A stretch of DNA of 64,000 nucleotides from Dehalococcoidia bacterium. GTDB lineage: Bacteria > Chloroflexota > Dehalococcoidia > SHYD01. Positions 5,401 through 15,993 of this stretch are shown in pieces. The stretch covers positions 2,617,733 to 2,681,732 of the forward strand of contig OZ253478.1 of NCBI GenBank assembly GCA_965261835.1, given 5' to 3'. A model generated the notes under the pieces. It saw only the letters and a list, made by a program, of their open reading frames with translations. It was not told where the DNA came from and ran no database searches. A program made the translations under genes and the position numbers. Within the stretch, counting starts at the first letter, position 1, and every line of letters starts with the position of its first letter.

Positions 5401-5565
5401 GCAGCGGCGGCAGGGGTGGCGGAGCAGCTGGCGGCGTTGCGGTCGGCGCGCGGGCAAAGCGTCAGCGTCACGATCGCGCGTCGGGAGCTGCGGGCGTGGC
5501 TGCGCGGGTCAGCGGCGGGCGCGCGGGTGGAGGCAGGGGTGGGTCGGCTGCTGGGTGGCGGGTAG
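2425..5565 (+). CDS. Type IIG-like fused restriction endonuclease / N6-adenine DNA methyltransferase
   Basis: N-terminal D...ExK plus QL..YL and GILTDG..W nuclease signature; EYYTP; DPACGSGTF (motif I); NPPW (motif IV); C-terminal TRD-like region. Confidence 0.85.
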   Translation: MTLHIDYDDPKFAAAAAEILQRHNNGEPEANITSAVRGFLIATGLASPSEIGEENPPAQGSRSAVDLTALDTFIESKRRIGNGIDPNPEYVQQLDDYLAQSAKQGRERMGILTDGKYWLTRWPNAGPVKLVPPYAFTLESPDGWILLYEWLRDHALAAVENKQPTRLTIAESFGPNSLAYQRDVAQLRAKYDEYAGLNTIKVKYQLWQNLLTAALGEIAGTPAQLDDLFVRHTYLSAVIGMVVQASFGSDIRQLAETDPADLLQGRSFRNQTGLQGVVESDFFAWPTEVGGLPLLKALARRVAKFDWRNPPNDIAAILYETVIPPEERRQLSEYYTPGWLARAIVQELVTDPMDQYVLDPACGSGTFIAEAVTHLLDAANKTSLDAKEVLDWLRFSVTGIDVHPVAVHLARAAWVLAAQPAIQAAVEDGFAANLTVPVYLGDALQLRFRTGDMFAEHNVTVQVEDEHHTELVFPVSLVQRAETFDGLMGDIADAIDHGDDPDVALDDHRITDPGERATLQQTIASLQRLHGEGRDHIWAYYTRNLVRPVALAQSKVDVIVGNPPWLNYNQTASILRSELERQSKDLYGIWTGGRYATHQDVAGLFFARSVDLYLKQGGLIGMVLPHSALQTGQYSKWRSGAWQAKSIGSGKGRQPGRVLSVDFSHKMAWDLEGLEPNSFFPVPAAVVFARNLGVDAQAIGLAGEVERWRGKPGGDADRRKRVAIVDTSTASISPYGHFSRNGATIFPRCLFFINETENTALIQAGQTITVNPRRGGQDKEPWRNLDLTALTGQTIEAQHVFDVYLGETLAPYATLDPLKAVLPLKPRNRELPADSKGVGGIRLGGLSQRMRDRWRVVSNLWEANRAAATKMNLLGQLDYYGKLSSQLEWRAAPGDRPVRVVYNQSGAPTAALLQDDDAIVDYRLFWIACKDAQEAHYLLAIINSDALATAVAPLMSKGQFGARDLEKHLWKLPIPAFDAGNPLHLELAAAGEAAAAGVAEQLAALRSARGQSVSVTIARRELRAWLRGSAAGARVEAGVGRLLGGG

Positions 5566-5567
5566 GG

Positions 5568-5653
5568 GATGCCGCCTCCATATTAAAGCCTGCCTATCGT
5601 ATAGAGCGCCGTGGCCGCCATATGTAAGGCGGGCTTCAACATAGGAAGGATGG
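5568..5653 (+). repeat. Two-site copy of the 40-bp palindromic array; direct repeat of 13942-14027
   Basis: Sites at 5576-5606 and 5616-5646; the last 40 bp (5614-5653) are identical to 13988-14027. Confidence 0.95.
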
Positions 5654-6546
5654 AAGGCAGAATGAAGTCCTTGCGAGAATTGCTGGCCTATTATAAGGGG
5701 TGCCAGATGGGTGCTGACGCTACATCTGAACGACGATTCGGGTCAAGACACGGCACGGTTACGATCTCGGATGAAACGAGGATTATTGATTCGGCCCTTC
5801 TCTATGATGCCGACCGATTGACCAAGGCGTCCTTAGCATCGTACTTGGCGTGCAGCCACCTGAGTTTGGGAGGCCACAGCACATGGGGAGACATCAGCTT
5901 GTACTATGCCCGGTTTCATAGCATCTTGGCAATGGTGCGGCTGGTAGGGATAGCCTCCGACAATAATTGGCTCTTGATTCGCACAAACGAAGAGCGCCGT
6001 GAATACAAGCGCATGAAAAAGTGCACCCAGGAAGCGAAAGAGGTCGGGTGCGGCGGGGGCAGCCACAGAGAGGCCTGGCGCATCTTCTCACGGTATTTTC
6101 AAGACTGGGCACAGGACGAGACGCCGAGAAAAGTGGCATCCATTCTGGGAGAAGACCCCATCTTCGCCAAAGGCACAGCCATGTATGCAGCGGCGATAGT
6201 GGAGCGAAACGAGGCCAACTATCTCCAGTCCAACGCCGGCGTCTTCTTTCCCGAGACCGATTTTTCGGGATCGCAGCATGTGGTTAAGGTAGCAAAGTCG
6301 CGGGGGAACTGGAACTGGTTGCGGACTGACGCTACTCCAGGTGGGTCCGAGGACTCGCCTGAAGAGTGGTTCGCCAAAGAGATGGGAACCTGGTACTTAA
6401 TCAAGTTCGTCATTGCGGCATTGGTCAAGTCGCAGGGTCAACTCCTCTTGGAAGACTATGTCTGGATTATCGACAACCTCGACGCCTACCCGGGACTGAC
6501 CCAGCACATGAAGAACGACCTTCTCGATGTGTGCACCTATGATTGA
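5650..6546 (+). CDS. Hypothetical protein, probable HEPN domain
   Basis: LYYARFH...GSH...ERNEANY matches the HEPN YYAxFH / sH / RxxADY pattern; visibly more AT-rich; start 5650 or 5662. Confidence 0.55.
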   Translation: MEGRMKSLRELLAYYKGCQMGADATSERRFGSRHGTVTISDETRIIDSALLYDADRLTKASLASYLACSHLSLGGHSTWGDISLYYARFHSILAMVRLVGIASDNNWLLIRTNEERREYKRMKKCTQEAKEVGCGGGSHREAWRIFSRYFQDWAQDETPRKVASILGEDPIFAKGTAMYAAAIVERNEANYLQSNAGVFFPETDFSGSQHVVKVAKSRGNWNWLRTDATPGGSEDSPEEWFAKEMGTWYLIKFVIAALVKSQGQLLLEDYVWIIDNLDAYPGLTQHMKNDLLDVCTYD

Positions 6547-6569
6547 CATTTTTGTGGGGTTGACGCCCC

Positions 6570-6688
6570 CGCGCGGGCAGGGCGTCAGCGTCACGATAGC
6601 GCGACGGGAGCTGCGGGCGTGGCTGCGCGGGTCAGCCGCGGGCGCGCGGGTGGAGGCAGGGGTGGGGCGGCTGCTGGGGGGCGGGTGA
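6570..6688 (+). repeat. Copy 2 of the RM gene 3' end (gene fragment with TGA stop)
   Basis: Aligns to 5448-5565 and encodes RGQGVSVTIARRELRAWLRGSAAGARVEAGVGRLLGGG*. Confidence 0.95.
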
Positions 6689-6821
6689 CGGGGGGCGACC
6701 TGCTTTGGCGAAACGGGATGGCTCACTCACAGATTTCACGGTAACATTAACATTCATTAACATGATTGTATCTACTCACTCTCAGAGTAGCCCGATACCC
6801 TGGTGACTGACAACCGGATGA

Positions 6822-12095: not shown

Positions 12096-12241
12096 GCAGC
12101 TCGCCGCACTGCGCGCCGCCCGCGGCCACAGCGTCAGCGTCACGATAGCGCGTCGGGAGCTGCGGGCGTGGCTGCGCGGGTCAGCCGCGGGCGCGCGGGT
12201 GGAGGCAGGGGTGGGGCGGCTGCTGGGTGGCGGGTAGGGGA
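12096..12241 (+). repeat. Copy 3 of the RM gene 3' end (gene fragment with TAG stop)
   Basis: 12130-12241 differs from 5458-5569 at 3 synonymous positions; 12096-12129 encodes QLAALRAARGH with recoded third positions. Confidence 0.95.
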
Positions 12242-12329: not shown

Positions 12330-12503
12330 ATGGCAAGAGTAGCCCCTTTTCATTCATCTAATCCCACCGACCCAGATGTTTATCACGAATGCTCAAATTG
12401 TCCACCAGGAAAACAAATCCCGCCCGGTAACAAGCGATCGGGCACAGGTGGCCAGCGCCGTTGCCTAGTGTGCGACAACTTGATTAGCAGCGGTGGTTGC
12501 TGA
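12330..12503 (+). CDS. Small Cys/His-rich protein (57 aa), missed by the ORF track
   Basis: AGGAGGTG RBS; MARVAPFHSSNPTDPDVYHECSNCPPGKQIPPGNKRSGTGGQRRCLVCDNLISSGGC. Confidence 0.75.
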   Translation: MARVAPFHSSNPTDPDVYHECSNCPPGKQIPPGNKRSGTGGQRRCLVCDNLISSGGC

Positions 12504-12538: not shown

Positions 12539-13762
12539 CTATGGTGAATCGTCCCCTCCACTGACTTGGGGGTCTTCCGTGCCTTCGCCGAAAATGCTGA
12601 CGTACGCATCGTAGCTAAAAAGGCGATTGCGCCTTCGCCCGGTAAGTTCCTTCAGAATACCAACGTTAACGAGGCGTGTGACGAGACCATTGGCAGCAGC
12701 ATAGCTGGTTCCGGTTATCTGCTGCACGCTGGCAACCGATAGATAAGGCTGTTGGTAGAGGCTTTCGAGAACGCGGTGGCCGTTGGCAGCAGCCTGGCCG
12801 AGGTGGTTGGTAACGGCCGTTCGGTGTTGTTCCCGAAGCGCAACGATGCGCCGGGCGGTCTTGGTGGCTTCCTCGCTCACTTCAGCCACGCCGCGGAGAA
12901 AGAACTTGAGCCAGCCCTCCCAATCGCCATGGTCCCGCACGGCTTGCAGGCGGTCGTAATATGACTGCCGTCGGCTCCTGAAATAGTGCGACAGGTACAG
13001 CACTGGCTTGCTCAGGATGCCCCATTCGGTCAGCAGGAAGGTGATGAGCAGCCTCCCTATGCGCCCGTTTCCGTCGAGGAAGGGGTGGATCGTCTCGAAC
13101 TGGGCATGGGCCAATCCAGTGCGCACGACGGCTGGAAGGGAATCGCTTTTGTGCAGAAAGGCTTCTAGTTCTCCCAGGACCCGGGGCACCTCCTGGGGTG
13201 GCGGGGGCACAAAATCGGCTTCGTTAAGCCCGCTGCCTGCAGCGCCAATCCAGTTCTGGCTGGTTCGCAGCTCCCCCGGCGTTAGCTGTGCGCCCCGGAC
13301 ACCTCGAAGCAACCGGGCGTGGATCTCCCTGATGAGACGAATGGATAGCGGCAGGTCATGTAGCCGCTCGAGTCCGTAGTTCATCGCAGATACGTAATTG
13401 ATCACCTCATACACGTCACGAGGACGGCCCGGCGTGCGAATCTGTGCCTCGGCGGCCAGCACGTCCTGGAGCGAGCTCTGCGTGCCTTCGATCTGGCTGG
13501 AGAGCACGGCTTCCTTCCGCACGTACATGAACACGAAGAGGTCAGGGTCGGGCAAGGTCTGGATGGAACCATCTAGGCGGCCCAAGGCGCTATCGGCGTT
13601 TGATAACAAGACCTGAAGCTCGCCGGTCAAATCCAGCGGTGGTTCCGGTGGAAGCCGGGCCGGGATAAAGGCGCGGTAGCCGGTTGGTTGGGGCAAGTAC
13701 TGCCCGGCTCGCCCAGAAGCGCGCGGGTGGTCTCGGGGAGGTTGAGTGTGCCCACTAACCAT
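12539..13762 (-). CDS. Fic family protein with N-terminal inhibitory motif and C-terminal HTH-like region
   Basis: HPFLDGNGRIGR catalytic loop; SSQIEG inhibitory motif. Confidence 0.92.
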   Translation of the reverse strand: MVSGHTQPPRDHPRASGRAGQYLPQPTGYRAFIPARLPPEPPLDLTGELQVLLSNADSALGRLDGSIQTLPDPDLFVFMYVRKEAVLSSQIEGTQSSLQDVLAAEAQIRTPGRPRDVYEVINYVSAMNYGLERLHDLPLSIRLIREIHARLLRGVRGAQLTPGELRTSQNWIGAAGSGLNEADFVPPPPQEVPRVLGELEAFLHKSDSLPAVVRTGLAHAQFETIHPFLDGNGRIGRLLITFLLTEWGILSKPVLYLSHYFRSRRQSYYDRLQAVRDHGDWEGWLKFFLRGVAEVSEEATKTARRIVALREQHRTAVTNHLGQAAANGHRVLESLYQQPYLSVASVQQITGTSYAAANGLVTRLVNVGILKELTGRRRNRLFSYDAYVSIFGEGTEDPQVSGGDDSP

Positions 13763-13768
13763 GGAAGG

Positions 13769-14027
13769 TCCAATATGGCGGGAGTCCGCCTCTATAGTAT
13801 AGTCTGCCTATAGTATAGAGCGAGATTGCCGCCATATGCAAGGCTGGCTATAATATGGCGAGATCTCCGCTCCATAGTATAGTTTGTCTATAGTATGGAG
13901 CGCCGTGGCCGCCATATGTAAGGCAGGCTACACTATGGCGAGATGCCCGCCCCATATTAAAGTCTGCCTTTACTATGGAGCGCTTTTGCCGCCATATGTA
14001 AGGCGGGCTTCAACATAGGAAGGATGG
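13769..14027. repeat. 40-bp-period array of six 31-bp imperfect palindromes (12-7-12) plus a leading half-site
   Basis: Sites start at 13790, 13830, 13870, 13910, 13950 and 13990; arms CKCCATA.. / ..TATGGMG; 9-bp linkers. Confidence 0.95.
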
Positions 14028-14033
14028 CCGGGG

Positions 14034-14762
14034 CTAGCGGCGGTAGTCCACCACCCGGAAGGTCTCAACCAGCCCGTGCTCCATGCCTTCGGGCAGCGCG
14101 CCCATGAAGCGGCGGGACATGGTCTTCATGCGTTCGGTGAACTCTTCCACCGAGCGATCGCCCACCTGGCTCTGGTGGCAGCGCAGCGCCTGTATCTTCA
14201 GATCGAAGGTGTCGCTGATATCCATGAACACATCGGGCTCCTCCGGGCCGGACACAAAGACCTGGCCGGTCTTGTGCGACTCCAGCCCCTCGGCCTCGTG
14301 CTCCGGGTAGGTGAGCCGGTCCCGTGCATAGGGGAACACCGCATCCATGGCCATGATCGCCGCCATGCGGTGGTCCCGGTGCTGGCGGTAGCGGCGGTAG
14401 GGGTCCATGGTGATGACAATGTCGGGCTTGAGGGTGCGGATGTAGCGGACGACTTGGCCGCGGCCCTCCTTGGTGTCCTCAACGCCGCCGTCAGGATGGC
14501 CCAGGAAAAAGACGTCCTTCACGCCGAGCGTGGCGGCCGCGGCCCGCTGCTCCGCCTCCCTGGTCTGGGCTAGGCGCTCCGGCGTCATCTGCGGGTCTTC
14601 GGTGCCCTTATCGCCGCGGGTGAACAGCACGTAGTAGATCTCCTTGCCCTCTTGGGCCCACTTACCAATGGTGCCGCCCGCGGAGAACTCGGCGTCGTCA
14701 GGATGGGCCATCACCAGCATGACGCGTTGGGCCCAGGCGCCGGGCAGTTCGTTTTCAGCCAT
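14034..14762 (-). CDS. PIG-L/LmbE family N-acetylglucosaminyl deacetylase (MshB/BshB-like)
   Basis: AHPDDAE and HRDH motifs; start overlaps the upstream GT stop. Confidence 0.88.
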   Translation of the reverse strand: MAENELPGAWAQRVMLVMAHPDDAEFSAGGTIGKWAQEGKEIYYVLFTRGDKGTEDPQMTPERLAQTREAEQRAAAATLGVKDVFFLGHPDGGVEDTKEGRGQVVRYIRTLKPDIVITMDPYRRYRQHRDHRMAAIMAMDAVFPYARDRLTYPEHEAEGLESHKTGQVFVSGPEEPDVFMDISDTFDLKIQALRCHQSQVGDRSVEEFTERMKTMSRRFMGALPEGMEHGLVETFRVVDYRR

Positions 14763-15993
14763 GTGCAACCTCCGAGAATGTGGGTTGAGCGCGGAGTTCA
14801 TCATAAAGCTCAAGTATCCGGTCGGCCACGGCGGGCCAGCGATAGGCCTGGGCGGCGACTCGCCCCGCCGCGCCCAGATGCTGACGCAAGGTCTCGTTGT
14901 CCAGCAGGAGCTCCAACCGCTCGGCAAACGGCTCCGGGCAGTGCCAGGGCACCAGGTAGCCGGTCTCACCGTCCCGCACGGTGCTCTGGAGGCCGCCCAC
15001 GCGTGACGCCACGACGGGGGTAGCGCAGGCCATGGCTTCCAGCGCCACCAGTCCGAAGCTCTCGTAATAGGACGGGATGACGCAGACGTCGGCGGCGTTG
15101 TAATAGAGCGGGAGCTGCGATTGGGTCACGCTGCCCATGAAGCTGATGTTGCGGTCCATGTCCAGGGTCTGGGCCAGCGACATCGCTTCTTCGAAAGGCG
15201 CGGCGTGCTCTAGCTCGCCGCCGACCACCAGCACCCGCACGCCTTCCGGCTGTTCGAGCTGCGAGGCGGCGTTGATAAGAATATTCAGGCCTTTTAGAGG
15301 GTCCGGCCGCCCCACGAAGAGCAGGATCTTCTCGCCGTTCAGCCCCAAGCGCTGGCGGGTGCTCCGCATGTCCAGCGGGCGGAAGATGTCGAGGTCCACC
15401 CCGCAGGGGATAACCCGCACCTTGCGCTCCATTCCGGGGTACAGGCGCATCATCCGTTCACCCTCTTGGGGCGACGCCACCACAATGGCGTCGGCGCCGC
15501 GCATGACCTTCAGCTCGGTGCGGATGCGGAGCGAGCTCTCATGCTCACCGGCGCGGGCCTGGTTCTTGACGGCGCCCATGGTGTGGAACATGGTCACGTG
15601 GGGCACGCGCCAACGGCGGCGGAGGAAGGCGCCGACCCAGCCGGAGAGCCAGTAGTGCGAGTGGATCGCGTCGTAAGTAAGGCCCTCCCGCTGCTGGAAG
15701 GCCAGCAGGCTGCTCAGGAACTCCGGCAGGTGGGGGTAGATGTCATCCTTGGTGAGGAACTCCCGGTTGCCCGCCTTCAGATGGATAACGCGAACGTTGT
15801 GATGGGGGGTGGTTATCTCAGGGTCGCCGGGGTTGTGCCAGCGCGAGAAGACGTCGACCTGGATCCCGCGCCGGGCCATCTCTGCGCTGAGCATGCCGAT
15901 GTAGACGTTCATGCCGCCCGCCTCCTTGTTGCCCGGCGGGAGCAAGGGGCAGCCGTGGACGCTGATAACGGCGATGCGCTGCGGTTGGTTCAT
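14755..15993 (-). CDS. MshA-like GT4 glycosyltransferase
   Basis: SVHGCPL...AGGMNVY, HSHYWLSG, ESFGLVALEA. Confidence 0.85.
   Translation of the reverse strand: MNQPQRIAVISVHGCPLLPPGNKEAGGMNVYIGMLSAEMARRGIQVDVFSRWHNPGDPEITTPHHNVRVIHLKAGNREFLTKDDIYPHLPEFLSSLLAFQQREGLTYDAIHSHYWLSGWVGAFLRRRWRVPHVTMFHTMGAVKNQARAGEHESSLRIRTELKVMRGADAIVVASPQEGERMMRLYPGMERKVRVIPCGVDLDIFRPLDMRSTRQRLGLNGEKILLFVGRPDPLKGLNILINAASQLEQPEGVRVLVVGGELEHAAPFEEAMSLAQTLDMDRNISFMGSVTQSQLPLYYNAADVCVIPSYYESFGLVALEAMACATPVVASRVGGLQSTVRDGETGYLVPWHCPEPFAERLELLLDNETLRQHLGAAGRVAAQAYRWPAVADRILELYDELRAQPTFSEVAHG

Follow-up and report, generated by a model that had tools for sequence, protein, structure and literature searches.

What is a row of evenly spaced palindromic sites doing directly in front of a Fic gene? 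The case that raises this question lies in a 64,000-nucleotide (nt) stretch of the genome of a Dehalococcoidia bacterium (GTDB lineage Bacteria; Chloroflexota; Dehalococcoidia; SHYD01; GenBank assembly GCA_965261835.1, contig OZ253478.1, forward strand), hereafter the window, in which all coordinates are given unless contig C1 or a locus number is named. An earlier note on the letters of this DNA had taken the sites for either a bank of empty recombination sites or a cooperative operator array directly upstream of Fic. The analysis reported here favors the second possibility: the array is probably a set of phased operators by which the toxic Fic gene is autorepressed, and most likely the multi-copy form of a control circuit that has so far been described with a single site.

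A phased array of palindromic sites fills the gap upstream of a SoFic-type gene

The array spans 13752-14033 and comprises seven ladder positions 40 base pairs (bp) apart, six of them occupied by 31-bp sites and the seventh by a degenerate one. It wholly fills the gap between the stop codon of a PIG-L deacetylase gene (14034-14036) and the ATG of the Fic gene (13762), and on the Fic-sense strand the CCATA positions start at 14018, 13978, 13938, 13898, 13858, 13818 and 13778. Each of the six sites is built from a 12-nt arm, a 7-nt core and a second 12-nt arm, with 9-nt linkers between sites, the letters being exactly those quoted in the earlier note. Two sub-types alternate along the array, a CTCCATA-type (A) and a CGCCATA-type (B). 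Nearest to Fic, A1 (13790-13820, CTCTATAGTATA-gtctgcc-TATAGTATAGAG) has degenerate outer pentamers (CTATA/TATAG) and holds a candidate Fic -10 box. It is followed by four sites that match CCATR-N17-YATGG exactly, namely B1 (13830-13860, CGCCATATGCAA-ggctggc-TATAATATGGCG), A2 (13870-13900, CTCCATAGTATA-gtttgtc-TATAGTATGGAG), B2 (13910-13940, CGCCATATGTAA-ggcaggc-TACACTATGGCG) and A3 (13950-13980, CCCCATATTAAA-gtctgcc-TTTACTATGGAG), and then by B3 (13990-14020, CGCCATATGTAA-ggcgggc-TTCAACATAGGA), which has a degenerate right half-site and the same letters as the B unit of a second locus described below. The seventh site (13752-13780, minus strand; 13752-13778 from pentamer to pentamer) has a good left half, CGCCATA (13780-13774), and AGTGG as its right half; the ribosome-binding region and the ATG of Fic both fall within it, the right half lying beyond the ATG.

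The regularity of the array was apparent by several measures. Tandem Repeats Finder reported a period of 80 bp with 3.0 copies (80% matches, score 302) and a sub-period of 40 bp with 5.2 copies, a repeat search detected extended inverted symmetry as well (arms of 30-48 nt at 71-80% complementarity), and a degenerate pattern of the site matched eight times in the window versus 0.00 matches expected from 100 shuffles. The units have diverged to 64-80% identity and the 40-bp register is without any indel; positions 1, 3, 5, 6 and 12 of the half-site are preserved in 12 out of 13. Within a site the pentamer centers are 22 bp apart, that is ~75 Å on straight B-DNA, and the site period of 40 bp is just under four helical turns. 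The alternating orientation previously proposed for the cores holds for the 7-nt cores, as B cores agree at 5-6 of 7 positions with A cores that are reverse-complemented and at 3-4 of 7 with A cores read directly (manual count), but not for the whole 40-nt units, in which A and B are equally alike both ways (identity 0.42-0.62 direct, 0.46-0.62 inverted). In line with the earlier note, which had held it to be neither coding nor CRISPR, the array contains no open reading frame (ORF) of at least 50 amino acids (aa) and is not an array of clustered regularly interspaced short palindromic repeats (CRISPR), its units abutting via conserved 9-nt linkers with no unique spacers.

The adjoining gene (12539-13762, minus strand, with an alternative TTG start at 13696) encodes a Fic protein of 407 aa, a SoFic-type AMP-transferase and toxin of the abortive-infection kind, with a Fic_N domain, the Fic motif HPFLDGNGRIGR and a C-terminal winged helix. 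Pfam matches were obtained to Fic_N (1.5e-28) and Fic (1.7e-20), the PADLOC SoFic model aligned to residues 28-391 over almost the whole profile (E 5e-122), and the SoFic chains 9tch/3eqx in the PDB matched residues 55-391 including the C-terminal domain (E about 1e-37). A candidate Fic promoter (13812-13841, minus strand) lies within B1/A1 and consists of a -35 element TTGCAT (13841-13836), an 18-nt spacer and a -10 element TATACT (13817-13812); it was read by eye, is a weak match to the consensus and was not called by the promoter scanner. The best sigma-70-like match of the region (10/12) lies at 13826-13854 on the plus strand, inside B1, directed away from Fic and antisense to PIG-L.

In a sensitive BLAST search of the array against the 2.76-Mb genome, one other copy was found (5572-5653, 76 nt at 89.5%), with all other matches at or below 19 nt; the array and this second copy are the only two loci in the genome. 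The array is therefore not part of an abundant intergenic family of repetitive extragenic palindromic (REP) sequences or bacterial interspersed mosaic elements (BIMEs), the contrary case that the earlier note had named. The exact pattern CCATR-N17-YATGG occurs 25 times in the genome versus 10-14 times in each of five Markov simulations, and the sole genomic cluster of exact sites is formed by the four consecutive ones of the array. No Y1/RAYT transposase (PF01797) was matched in the genome, which is 98.3% complete, and the array DNA matched none of 40 related genomes. Neither the exact B-unit pattern in metagenome contigs nor the A-unit pattern in viral contigs gave any match. A looser B-unit pattern gave five single matches in viral contigs, none of them an array, four at an apparent tRNA gene junction on similar phage contigs (read by eye) and one in unrelated sequence; a looser genome-wide regular expression for the site gave 405 matches, mostly chance, and was dropped.

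The genome has a real REP/BIME-like family of its own, an abundant GC-rich palindromic repeat (GGGAGTCCAGAGGGG...; GGGGGACACCCCCAG) that is unrelated in sequence to the Fic array and forms tandem arrays with a 62-130-bp period in more than 20 places (for example C1:189478-189880, 193888-194756 and 475440-476014).

Ladders of inverted pentamers recur upstream of homologous Fic genes

SoFic-like genes were detected at E <= 1e-40 in 148 of 401 genomes of the window's taxonomic class. Across 30 loci, the window's own and the 29 best others, we counted sites with at least seven of the eight core letters of CCATR-N17-YATGG and found 36 in 14,582 nt upstream of Fic versus 13 in 106,011 nt elsewhere, a ~20-fold difference; without the window's own locus the counts were 30 upstream and 11 elsewhere. 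Nine direct units of 40 nt, each with CCATA-N17-CATGG, precede the Fic gene at locus L012, and four sites stand at -203, -163, -123 and -83 at L011. Three sites 40 bp apart were seen at L015 and likewise at L013, the latter with the pentamer variants CTATG/TTATA, and two or three sites were present at L014/L016 and L019-L021.

Other half-sites are arranged in the same manner upstream of Fic genes of more remote homology: TTGAA-N15-TTCAA recurs every 41 bp in 6 and 11-12 units (L036 and L039), TTAAT-N13-ATTAA every 40 bp at L059, L061 and L093, and TATTC/GAATA with a 71-bp period at L063, L064, L067 and L075. The common design is thus an inverted pentamer pair at fixed spacing, repeated every 40-41 bp (in some cases 71 bp) in 3-12 units, with a pentamer (CCATR, TTGAA, TTAAT or TATTC) that differs by Fic subgroup. 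Some of the arrays are young, the units being 91-92% identical in L012, L036 and L039.

A ladder test that required a chain of at least three exact 5-mer palindromes with gaps of 35-85 bp was positive in 9 of 66 upstream regions; some of these positives share a genus and they amount to about six independent lineages. The same test was negative in all 122 control regions (0/28 downstream, 0/65 far upstream, 0/29 in-gene) and in all 330 shuffles. Fic is the only gene common to the array loci (the best cluster not overlapping Fic was found in 5 of 30), and in two genomes the array sequence is confined to the Fic locus. A secondary copy like the window's exists in the genome of L012, where three units directly follow the stop codon of Fic and two further, degenerate ones lie on a different contig. 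The presumed recognition helix also differs by half-site group, reading Y/F-A/P/Q-A/S/G-AN with CCATR, WPTAAAAI with TTGAA and FPAAASAM with TTAAT, a pattern that fits co-evolution of helix and half-site.

A model of negative autoregulation by Fic dimers

A fixed spacing of inverted pentamers is the hallmark of a protein that binds DNA as a dimer. In SoFic from Shewanella oneidensis it is the dimer, not the monomer, that binds specifically to the protein's own promoter, less than 100 bp from the start codon, and AMPylation by SoFic depends on dimerisation (bioRxiv 10.64898/2026.07.09.737422). This preprint proposes autoregulation and defines no motif; the stems 'palindrom' and 'operator' occur 0 times in it and repeats are not mentioned. 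CccR from Yersinia pseudotuberculosis represses itself and has a footprint AGATAATCAT-N26-ATGATAATCT at its own -35/-10 boxes, with DNA-binding helices 70.2 Å apart (PMC9755527). Wild-type Sofic is difficult to clone and has a toxic effect on E. coli (PMC12249575), and DNA binding alters the oligomeric state and the activity of the related Fic protein CbFic2 (PMC10628234). A search whose scope did not include the supplementary probe figures of the SoFic and CccR papers gave no published account of fic genes preceded by operators in tandem or in phase. In the window, inverted half-sites with a long spacer occur within ~100 bp upstream of the Fic start at 13752-13778, 13792-13818 and 13832-13858.

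The ladders at homologous Fic genes and the published promoter binding by SoFic and CccR together support the cooperative operator array that the earlier note had offered as one of its two readings. By analogy with these relatives, dimers of the window's Fic protein would bind each CCATR-N17-YATGG site via their two winged helices, and the 22-bp distance between pentamer centers would suit a dimer whose DNA-reading heads are far apart. With the 40-bp register, as many as seven dimers would be aligned along approximately the same side of the helix, and in the proximal units bound Fic would occlude the candidate Fic promoter and the ribosome-binding region. Once enough Fic protein has accumulated, occupancy would shut off Fic synthesis, as expected of negative autoregulation. 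The row of bound dimers would probably also block read-through from upstream, which is possible because the PIG-L operon (minus-strand order acetyltransferase-like, GT4 glycosyltransferase and PIG-L deacetylase genes, then the array and Fic) runs co-directionally into the array; an RNA-library contig that reaches 31 nt into the distal unit is only a hint on such read-through. Repression and roadblock would both follow from binding of Fic to the array.

Several observations weigh against this model. The strict ladder test was passed by a minority of upstream regions (9/66), and 46 of 66 had no chain at all, so the arrays are no general requirement. Plasmid-borne homologues from Alphaproteobacteria and Cyanobacteria have only 2-3 different palindromes near the start (by eye), and the match between helix and half-site is confounded by descent, close relatives sharing both. 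The spacer of the published CccR operator is 26 bp and that of the array 17 bp. The candidate Fic promoter fits the -35 consensus at only 3 of 6 positions, and the scanner's sole promoter call in the array (TTGCCG-17-TATAAT, 13826-13854) is on the opposite strand. The folding of either array strand is stronger than that of shuffled sequence (z -5.7 and -7.2), as is expected of any palindrome array. Finally, the second copy precedes a gene whose homologues lack the sites, and it can be explained as a by-product as well as by co-regulation.

Alternative explanations for the array

The protein bound by the array might be one other than Fic, or Fic might be bound for a purpose other than repression, the array being a scaffold or sponge in which Fic dimers are kept in reserve and their enzymatic state is adjusted. 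Phased inverted half-sites tell only of some dimeric DNA binder, and the tandem design resembles plasmid centromeres such as F sopC. The reports that DNA changes the oligomeric state and activity of CbFic2 (PMC10628234) and that AMPylation by SoFic needs dimerisation would suit a function of this kind. No gene besides Fic is common to the array loci, however, and no par or rep gene was found among the scanned neighbors of the array. Moreover, the half-site shifts with the Fic subgroup within one class, which argues against a common host factor. We consider an array of this kind quite unlikely.

Alternatively, only one or two promoter-proximal sites might work, the rest being neutral tandem expansion by replication slippage or unequal crossing-over. 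The number of units does vary from 2 to 12 between loci, the arrays of L012, L036 and L039 are young, the plasmid homologues manage with 2-3 sites, and the pentamers of B3 and A1 are degenerate. Yet the units of the window's array stand at 64-80% identity while four of six sites remain exact, the register is indel-free and the five half-site positions are kept in 12 of 13 half-sites; ladders also arose independently with at least four different half-sites. Taken together, this makes neutral expansion distinctly unlikely.

We judge it very unlikely that the element acts as RNA, either as a 5' leader or as a type III-like small-RNA array whose hairpins control or neutralise Fic. The layout is like that of type III toxin-antitoxin systems, the folding of both strands agrees with hairpins, and one change between A2 and A3 is compensated (TATA/TATA to TAAA/TTTA). 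An RNA-library contig (14003-14353) also extends from PIG-L into the distal unit by 31 nt, but its end falls within a 40-mer that is also present at the second locus, a place at which assemblies break, and DNA may be present in the library. Conservation across loci is limited to the outer pentamers and their spacing, and the inner arms are mostly unpaired (84 Watson-Crick, 16 G-U, 31 A-C and 79 other pairs, that is 126 non-Watson-Crick, G-U being no more frequent than A-C on the Fic-sense strand), so there is no conserved hairpin; the L012 unit can pair at five positions only, around a 17-nt loop. A scan of 13000-14800 with Rfam at E <= 10 yielded no valid match, its four sub-threshold rows being three microRNA models and the Pseudomonas small RNA P11, the best of them a microRNA model at E 0.29, far below the gathering score. 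No terminator-like site was found in the array, and Fic is not an RNase.

Population data bear on the remaining alternative, the bank of recombination sites. All or part of the stretch is contained in 20 public runs from ten studies, of which four were compared as assembled contigs, a limited kind of evidence in which rare variants may be hidden. In run X6, from a different sample, a 5,055-nt DNA contig spans 13300-14500 with nine substitutions and no gap, and a contig of run X13, from a further sample, covers 13735-13951 with two substitutions and no gap; the only variants inside the array are 13783 A>G, 13810 A>G and 13919 T>C, and neither DNA contig has an indel, an inversion or a change in unit number there. 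In the RNA runs, contigs are present for the PIG-L side (14003-14500) and for a small part of Fic (13477-13516) but not for the interior of the array. This gap carries no information, since the repeat breaks assemblies and every run was available in contig form. In run X6 one contig (depth 10.3) has a joint 13525>13641, which is located outside the array, within the coding sequence of Fic, where many divergent contigs from other organisms are also found.

Site-specific recombination of the tyrosine-recombinase type, shufflon- or pdif-like, is highly improbable: the array does have the 12-bp inverted arms around a 7-bp asymmetric core of recombinase core sites, as the earlier note had pointed out, and the second copy lies within a region of cassettes flanked by long direct repeats, but no tyrosine recombinase was found in the window, the genome's only Phage_integrase (PF00589) matches (C1:478413, 1825942 and 2343905) are at least 273 kb away from it (2617733-2681732), there is no Y1 transposase, the 9-bp linkers leave nothing to exchange, invert or excise, the X6 and X13 contigs show substitutions without rearrangement, and the same design stands upstream of Fic genes whatever the neighbors. 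The evidence points instead to what the earlier note had set against recombination, a motif bound only by the helix-turn-helix of Fic with no rearrangement.

A second copy precedes an ORFan gene

The copy announced in the earlier note by its core GCCTGCC at 5588 exists. It consists of one 80-bp super-unit (5568-5653, 86 bp) with an A-type site at 5576-5606 and a B-type site at 5616-5646, and is located ~8 kb from the array, between the stop codon of a type IIG restriction-modification (RM) gene and the start of an ORFan gene. Its identity to the array's distal super-unit is 87%, higher than the 72-78% over 86 nt that the array's own super-units share with one another. The ORFan gene lies directly downstream (5662-6546, plus strand) and encodes 294 aa from MKSL. 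Its product belongs to a conserved family with 36 homologues and gave no Pfam or PADLOC match. Two loci of homologues in species-representative genomes have no such units upstream; the units are therefore not a feature of the ORFan gene family, and the second copy is a recent local acquisition. It may bring the ORFan gene under Fic control, or may be a by-product of the recombination that shaped the defense island.

An AlphaFold model of the ORFan protein, of good quality (predicted local distance difference test, pLDDT, 78; predicted template-modelling score, pTM, 0.81), was compared with known structures by VIA-align, and the top rows were HEPN proteins (4nqf_B with Z 8.9, root-mean-square deviation 3.7 and 137 aligned residues; 2hsb_A with Z 8.2), at Z scores that lie below the safe level of VIA-align for helical bundles. 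Foldseek returned nothing at E <= 0.001. The invariant motif of the family, R186-N187-x-x-N190-Y191, is without the His of the HEPN motif Rx4-6H. From the model, a HEPN-like fold can be suggested weakly.

In the Dehalococcoidia metagenome-assembled genome of L004, the ORFan homologue directly follows a large gene with weak, sub-threshold methyltransferase-like matches. An unrelated 40-bp-period repeat at L004 7298-7438 (3.5 copies, 98% identical, hairpin TTCCGGC-cttc-GCCGGAA) adjoins a phage portal gene.

Neighboring genes and other repeats of the defense island

Elsewhere in the window, upstream, lie a HicB antitoxin gene, the type IIG RM gene, the ORFan gene and a gene for a 1,728-aa DpdF/GajB-like double helicase, and with these genes and Fic the region is a defense island. 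The 3' end of the RM gene, its last ~146 nt including the stop codon, is present three times as a direct repeat (5424-5569, 6547-6692 and 12096-12241, copies 2 and 3 at 84% and 91% identity to the first), and the copies stand after the RM gene, the ORFan gene and the helicase gene. Judged by this arrangement, the defense genes look like cassettes that each end in the repeat, which suggests cassette insertion by recombination at this sequence. A candidate fourth copy, 31 nt at 13700-13730 with 74% identity, is held to be chance because it is a GC-rich stretch coding a part of the conserved Fic N-terminus, also present in homologues. A 64-nt direct repeat (97% identical, 1473-1536 and 2380-2443) brackets the HicB antitoxin region, its second copy overlapping the start of the RM gene, and has the appearance of a second cassette-like insertion with a long flanking duplication. 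Just after the second RM 3'-end copy, a short AT-rich repeat (TAACAT/CATTAACATT) lies at 6742-6763 in the helicase promoter region.

Convergent with the Fic gene is a 57-aa ORF (12330-12503, plus strand) with a strong AGGAGG ribosome-binding site. Its product has four Cys in two CxxC pairs (zinc-ribbon-like) and no Pfam or PADLOC match. A 47-aa antitoxin has been published downstream of E. coli Sofic (PMC12249575).

Implications for SoFic control

SoFic is an anti-phage system that consists of a single gene and occurs widely, and its toxin has to remain silent. The ladders supply concrete candidate operator motifs for several SoFic subgroups, where the 2026 preprint gives promoter binding without a site, and their strict 40-41-bp phasing implies that bound proteins would sit side by side along the same face of the DNA. 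The range of copy numbers (2-12) suggests that unit number tunes repression or insulation of the toxic gene. The ladders also give natural pairs of recognition helix and half-site for the study of winged-helix DNA reading.

A more far-reaching joint reading, which we regard as rather unlikely, would make the ladders a scaffold that couples SoFic assembly and AMPylation to the integrity and occupancy of the cell's own DNA, serves as an insulator, and extends control to the HEPN-like gene. If so, SoFic dimers would assemble side by side, the toxin gene would be walled off from upstream transcription, and Fic would be a local master regulator of the island, reaching the HEPN-like ORFan gene. In HEPN/MNT pairs, AMPylation switches the HEPN toxin off, a subject on which the titles of two PDB entries among the structure-search rows of the ORFan protein (7ae2 and 8xdj) bear; it is therefore conceivable that the Fic AMP-transferase and the HEPN-like ORFan protein are functionally linked.

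Comparison with known systems

R64 shufflon sfx sites and pdif modules have an arm-core-arm geometry that the array, with sites of about 12-7-12, shares. Unlike them, the array has no nearby recombinase, no DNA between its sites beyond the linkers and no rearrangement seen. Type III toxin-antitoxin systems have tandem repeats directly upstream of the toxin gene, and the array is likewise made of tandem direct repeats immediately upstream of one. Here, by contrast, the toxin is Fic and not an endoribonuclease of the ToxN/AbiQ type, and the array has neither a terminator-like site nor a conserved fold.

Among the tandem operator or centromere arrays of plasmids and phages, F sopC consists of 43-bp repeats, each with an inverted repeat. 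The array is similarly composed of direct repeats of ~40 bp with one inverted-repeat site each, which would give a phased protein coat. Unlike sopC, it has no partition or replication genes among its scanned neighbors and is tied to the Fic gene in many unrelated contexts.

Two counterparts are Fic proteins themselves. The array-adjacent Fic is in the same protein family as SoFic, judging by the PADLOC SoFic model and the PDB matches; unlike the account of SoFic in the preprint, which gives no motif or repeats, the array has defined half-sites. The operator of CccR is one 46-nt site with 10-bp boxes and a 26-bp spacer, whereas the array has a 17-bp spacer seven times over in a strict 40-bp register, its half-site sequence is unrelated, and one further copy stands at another gene. 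What the two have in common is a Fic-family toxin with a C-terminal helix-turn-helix, the CccR dimer being bound to two long-spaced inverted repeats at its own -35/-10 region, and a distance between the array's pentamer centers (~75 Å) that is close to the 70.2 Å reported for CccR.

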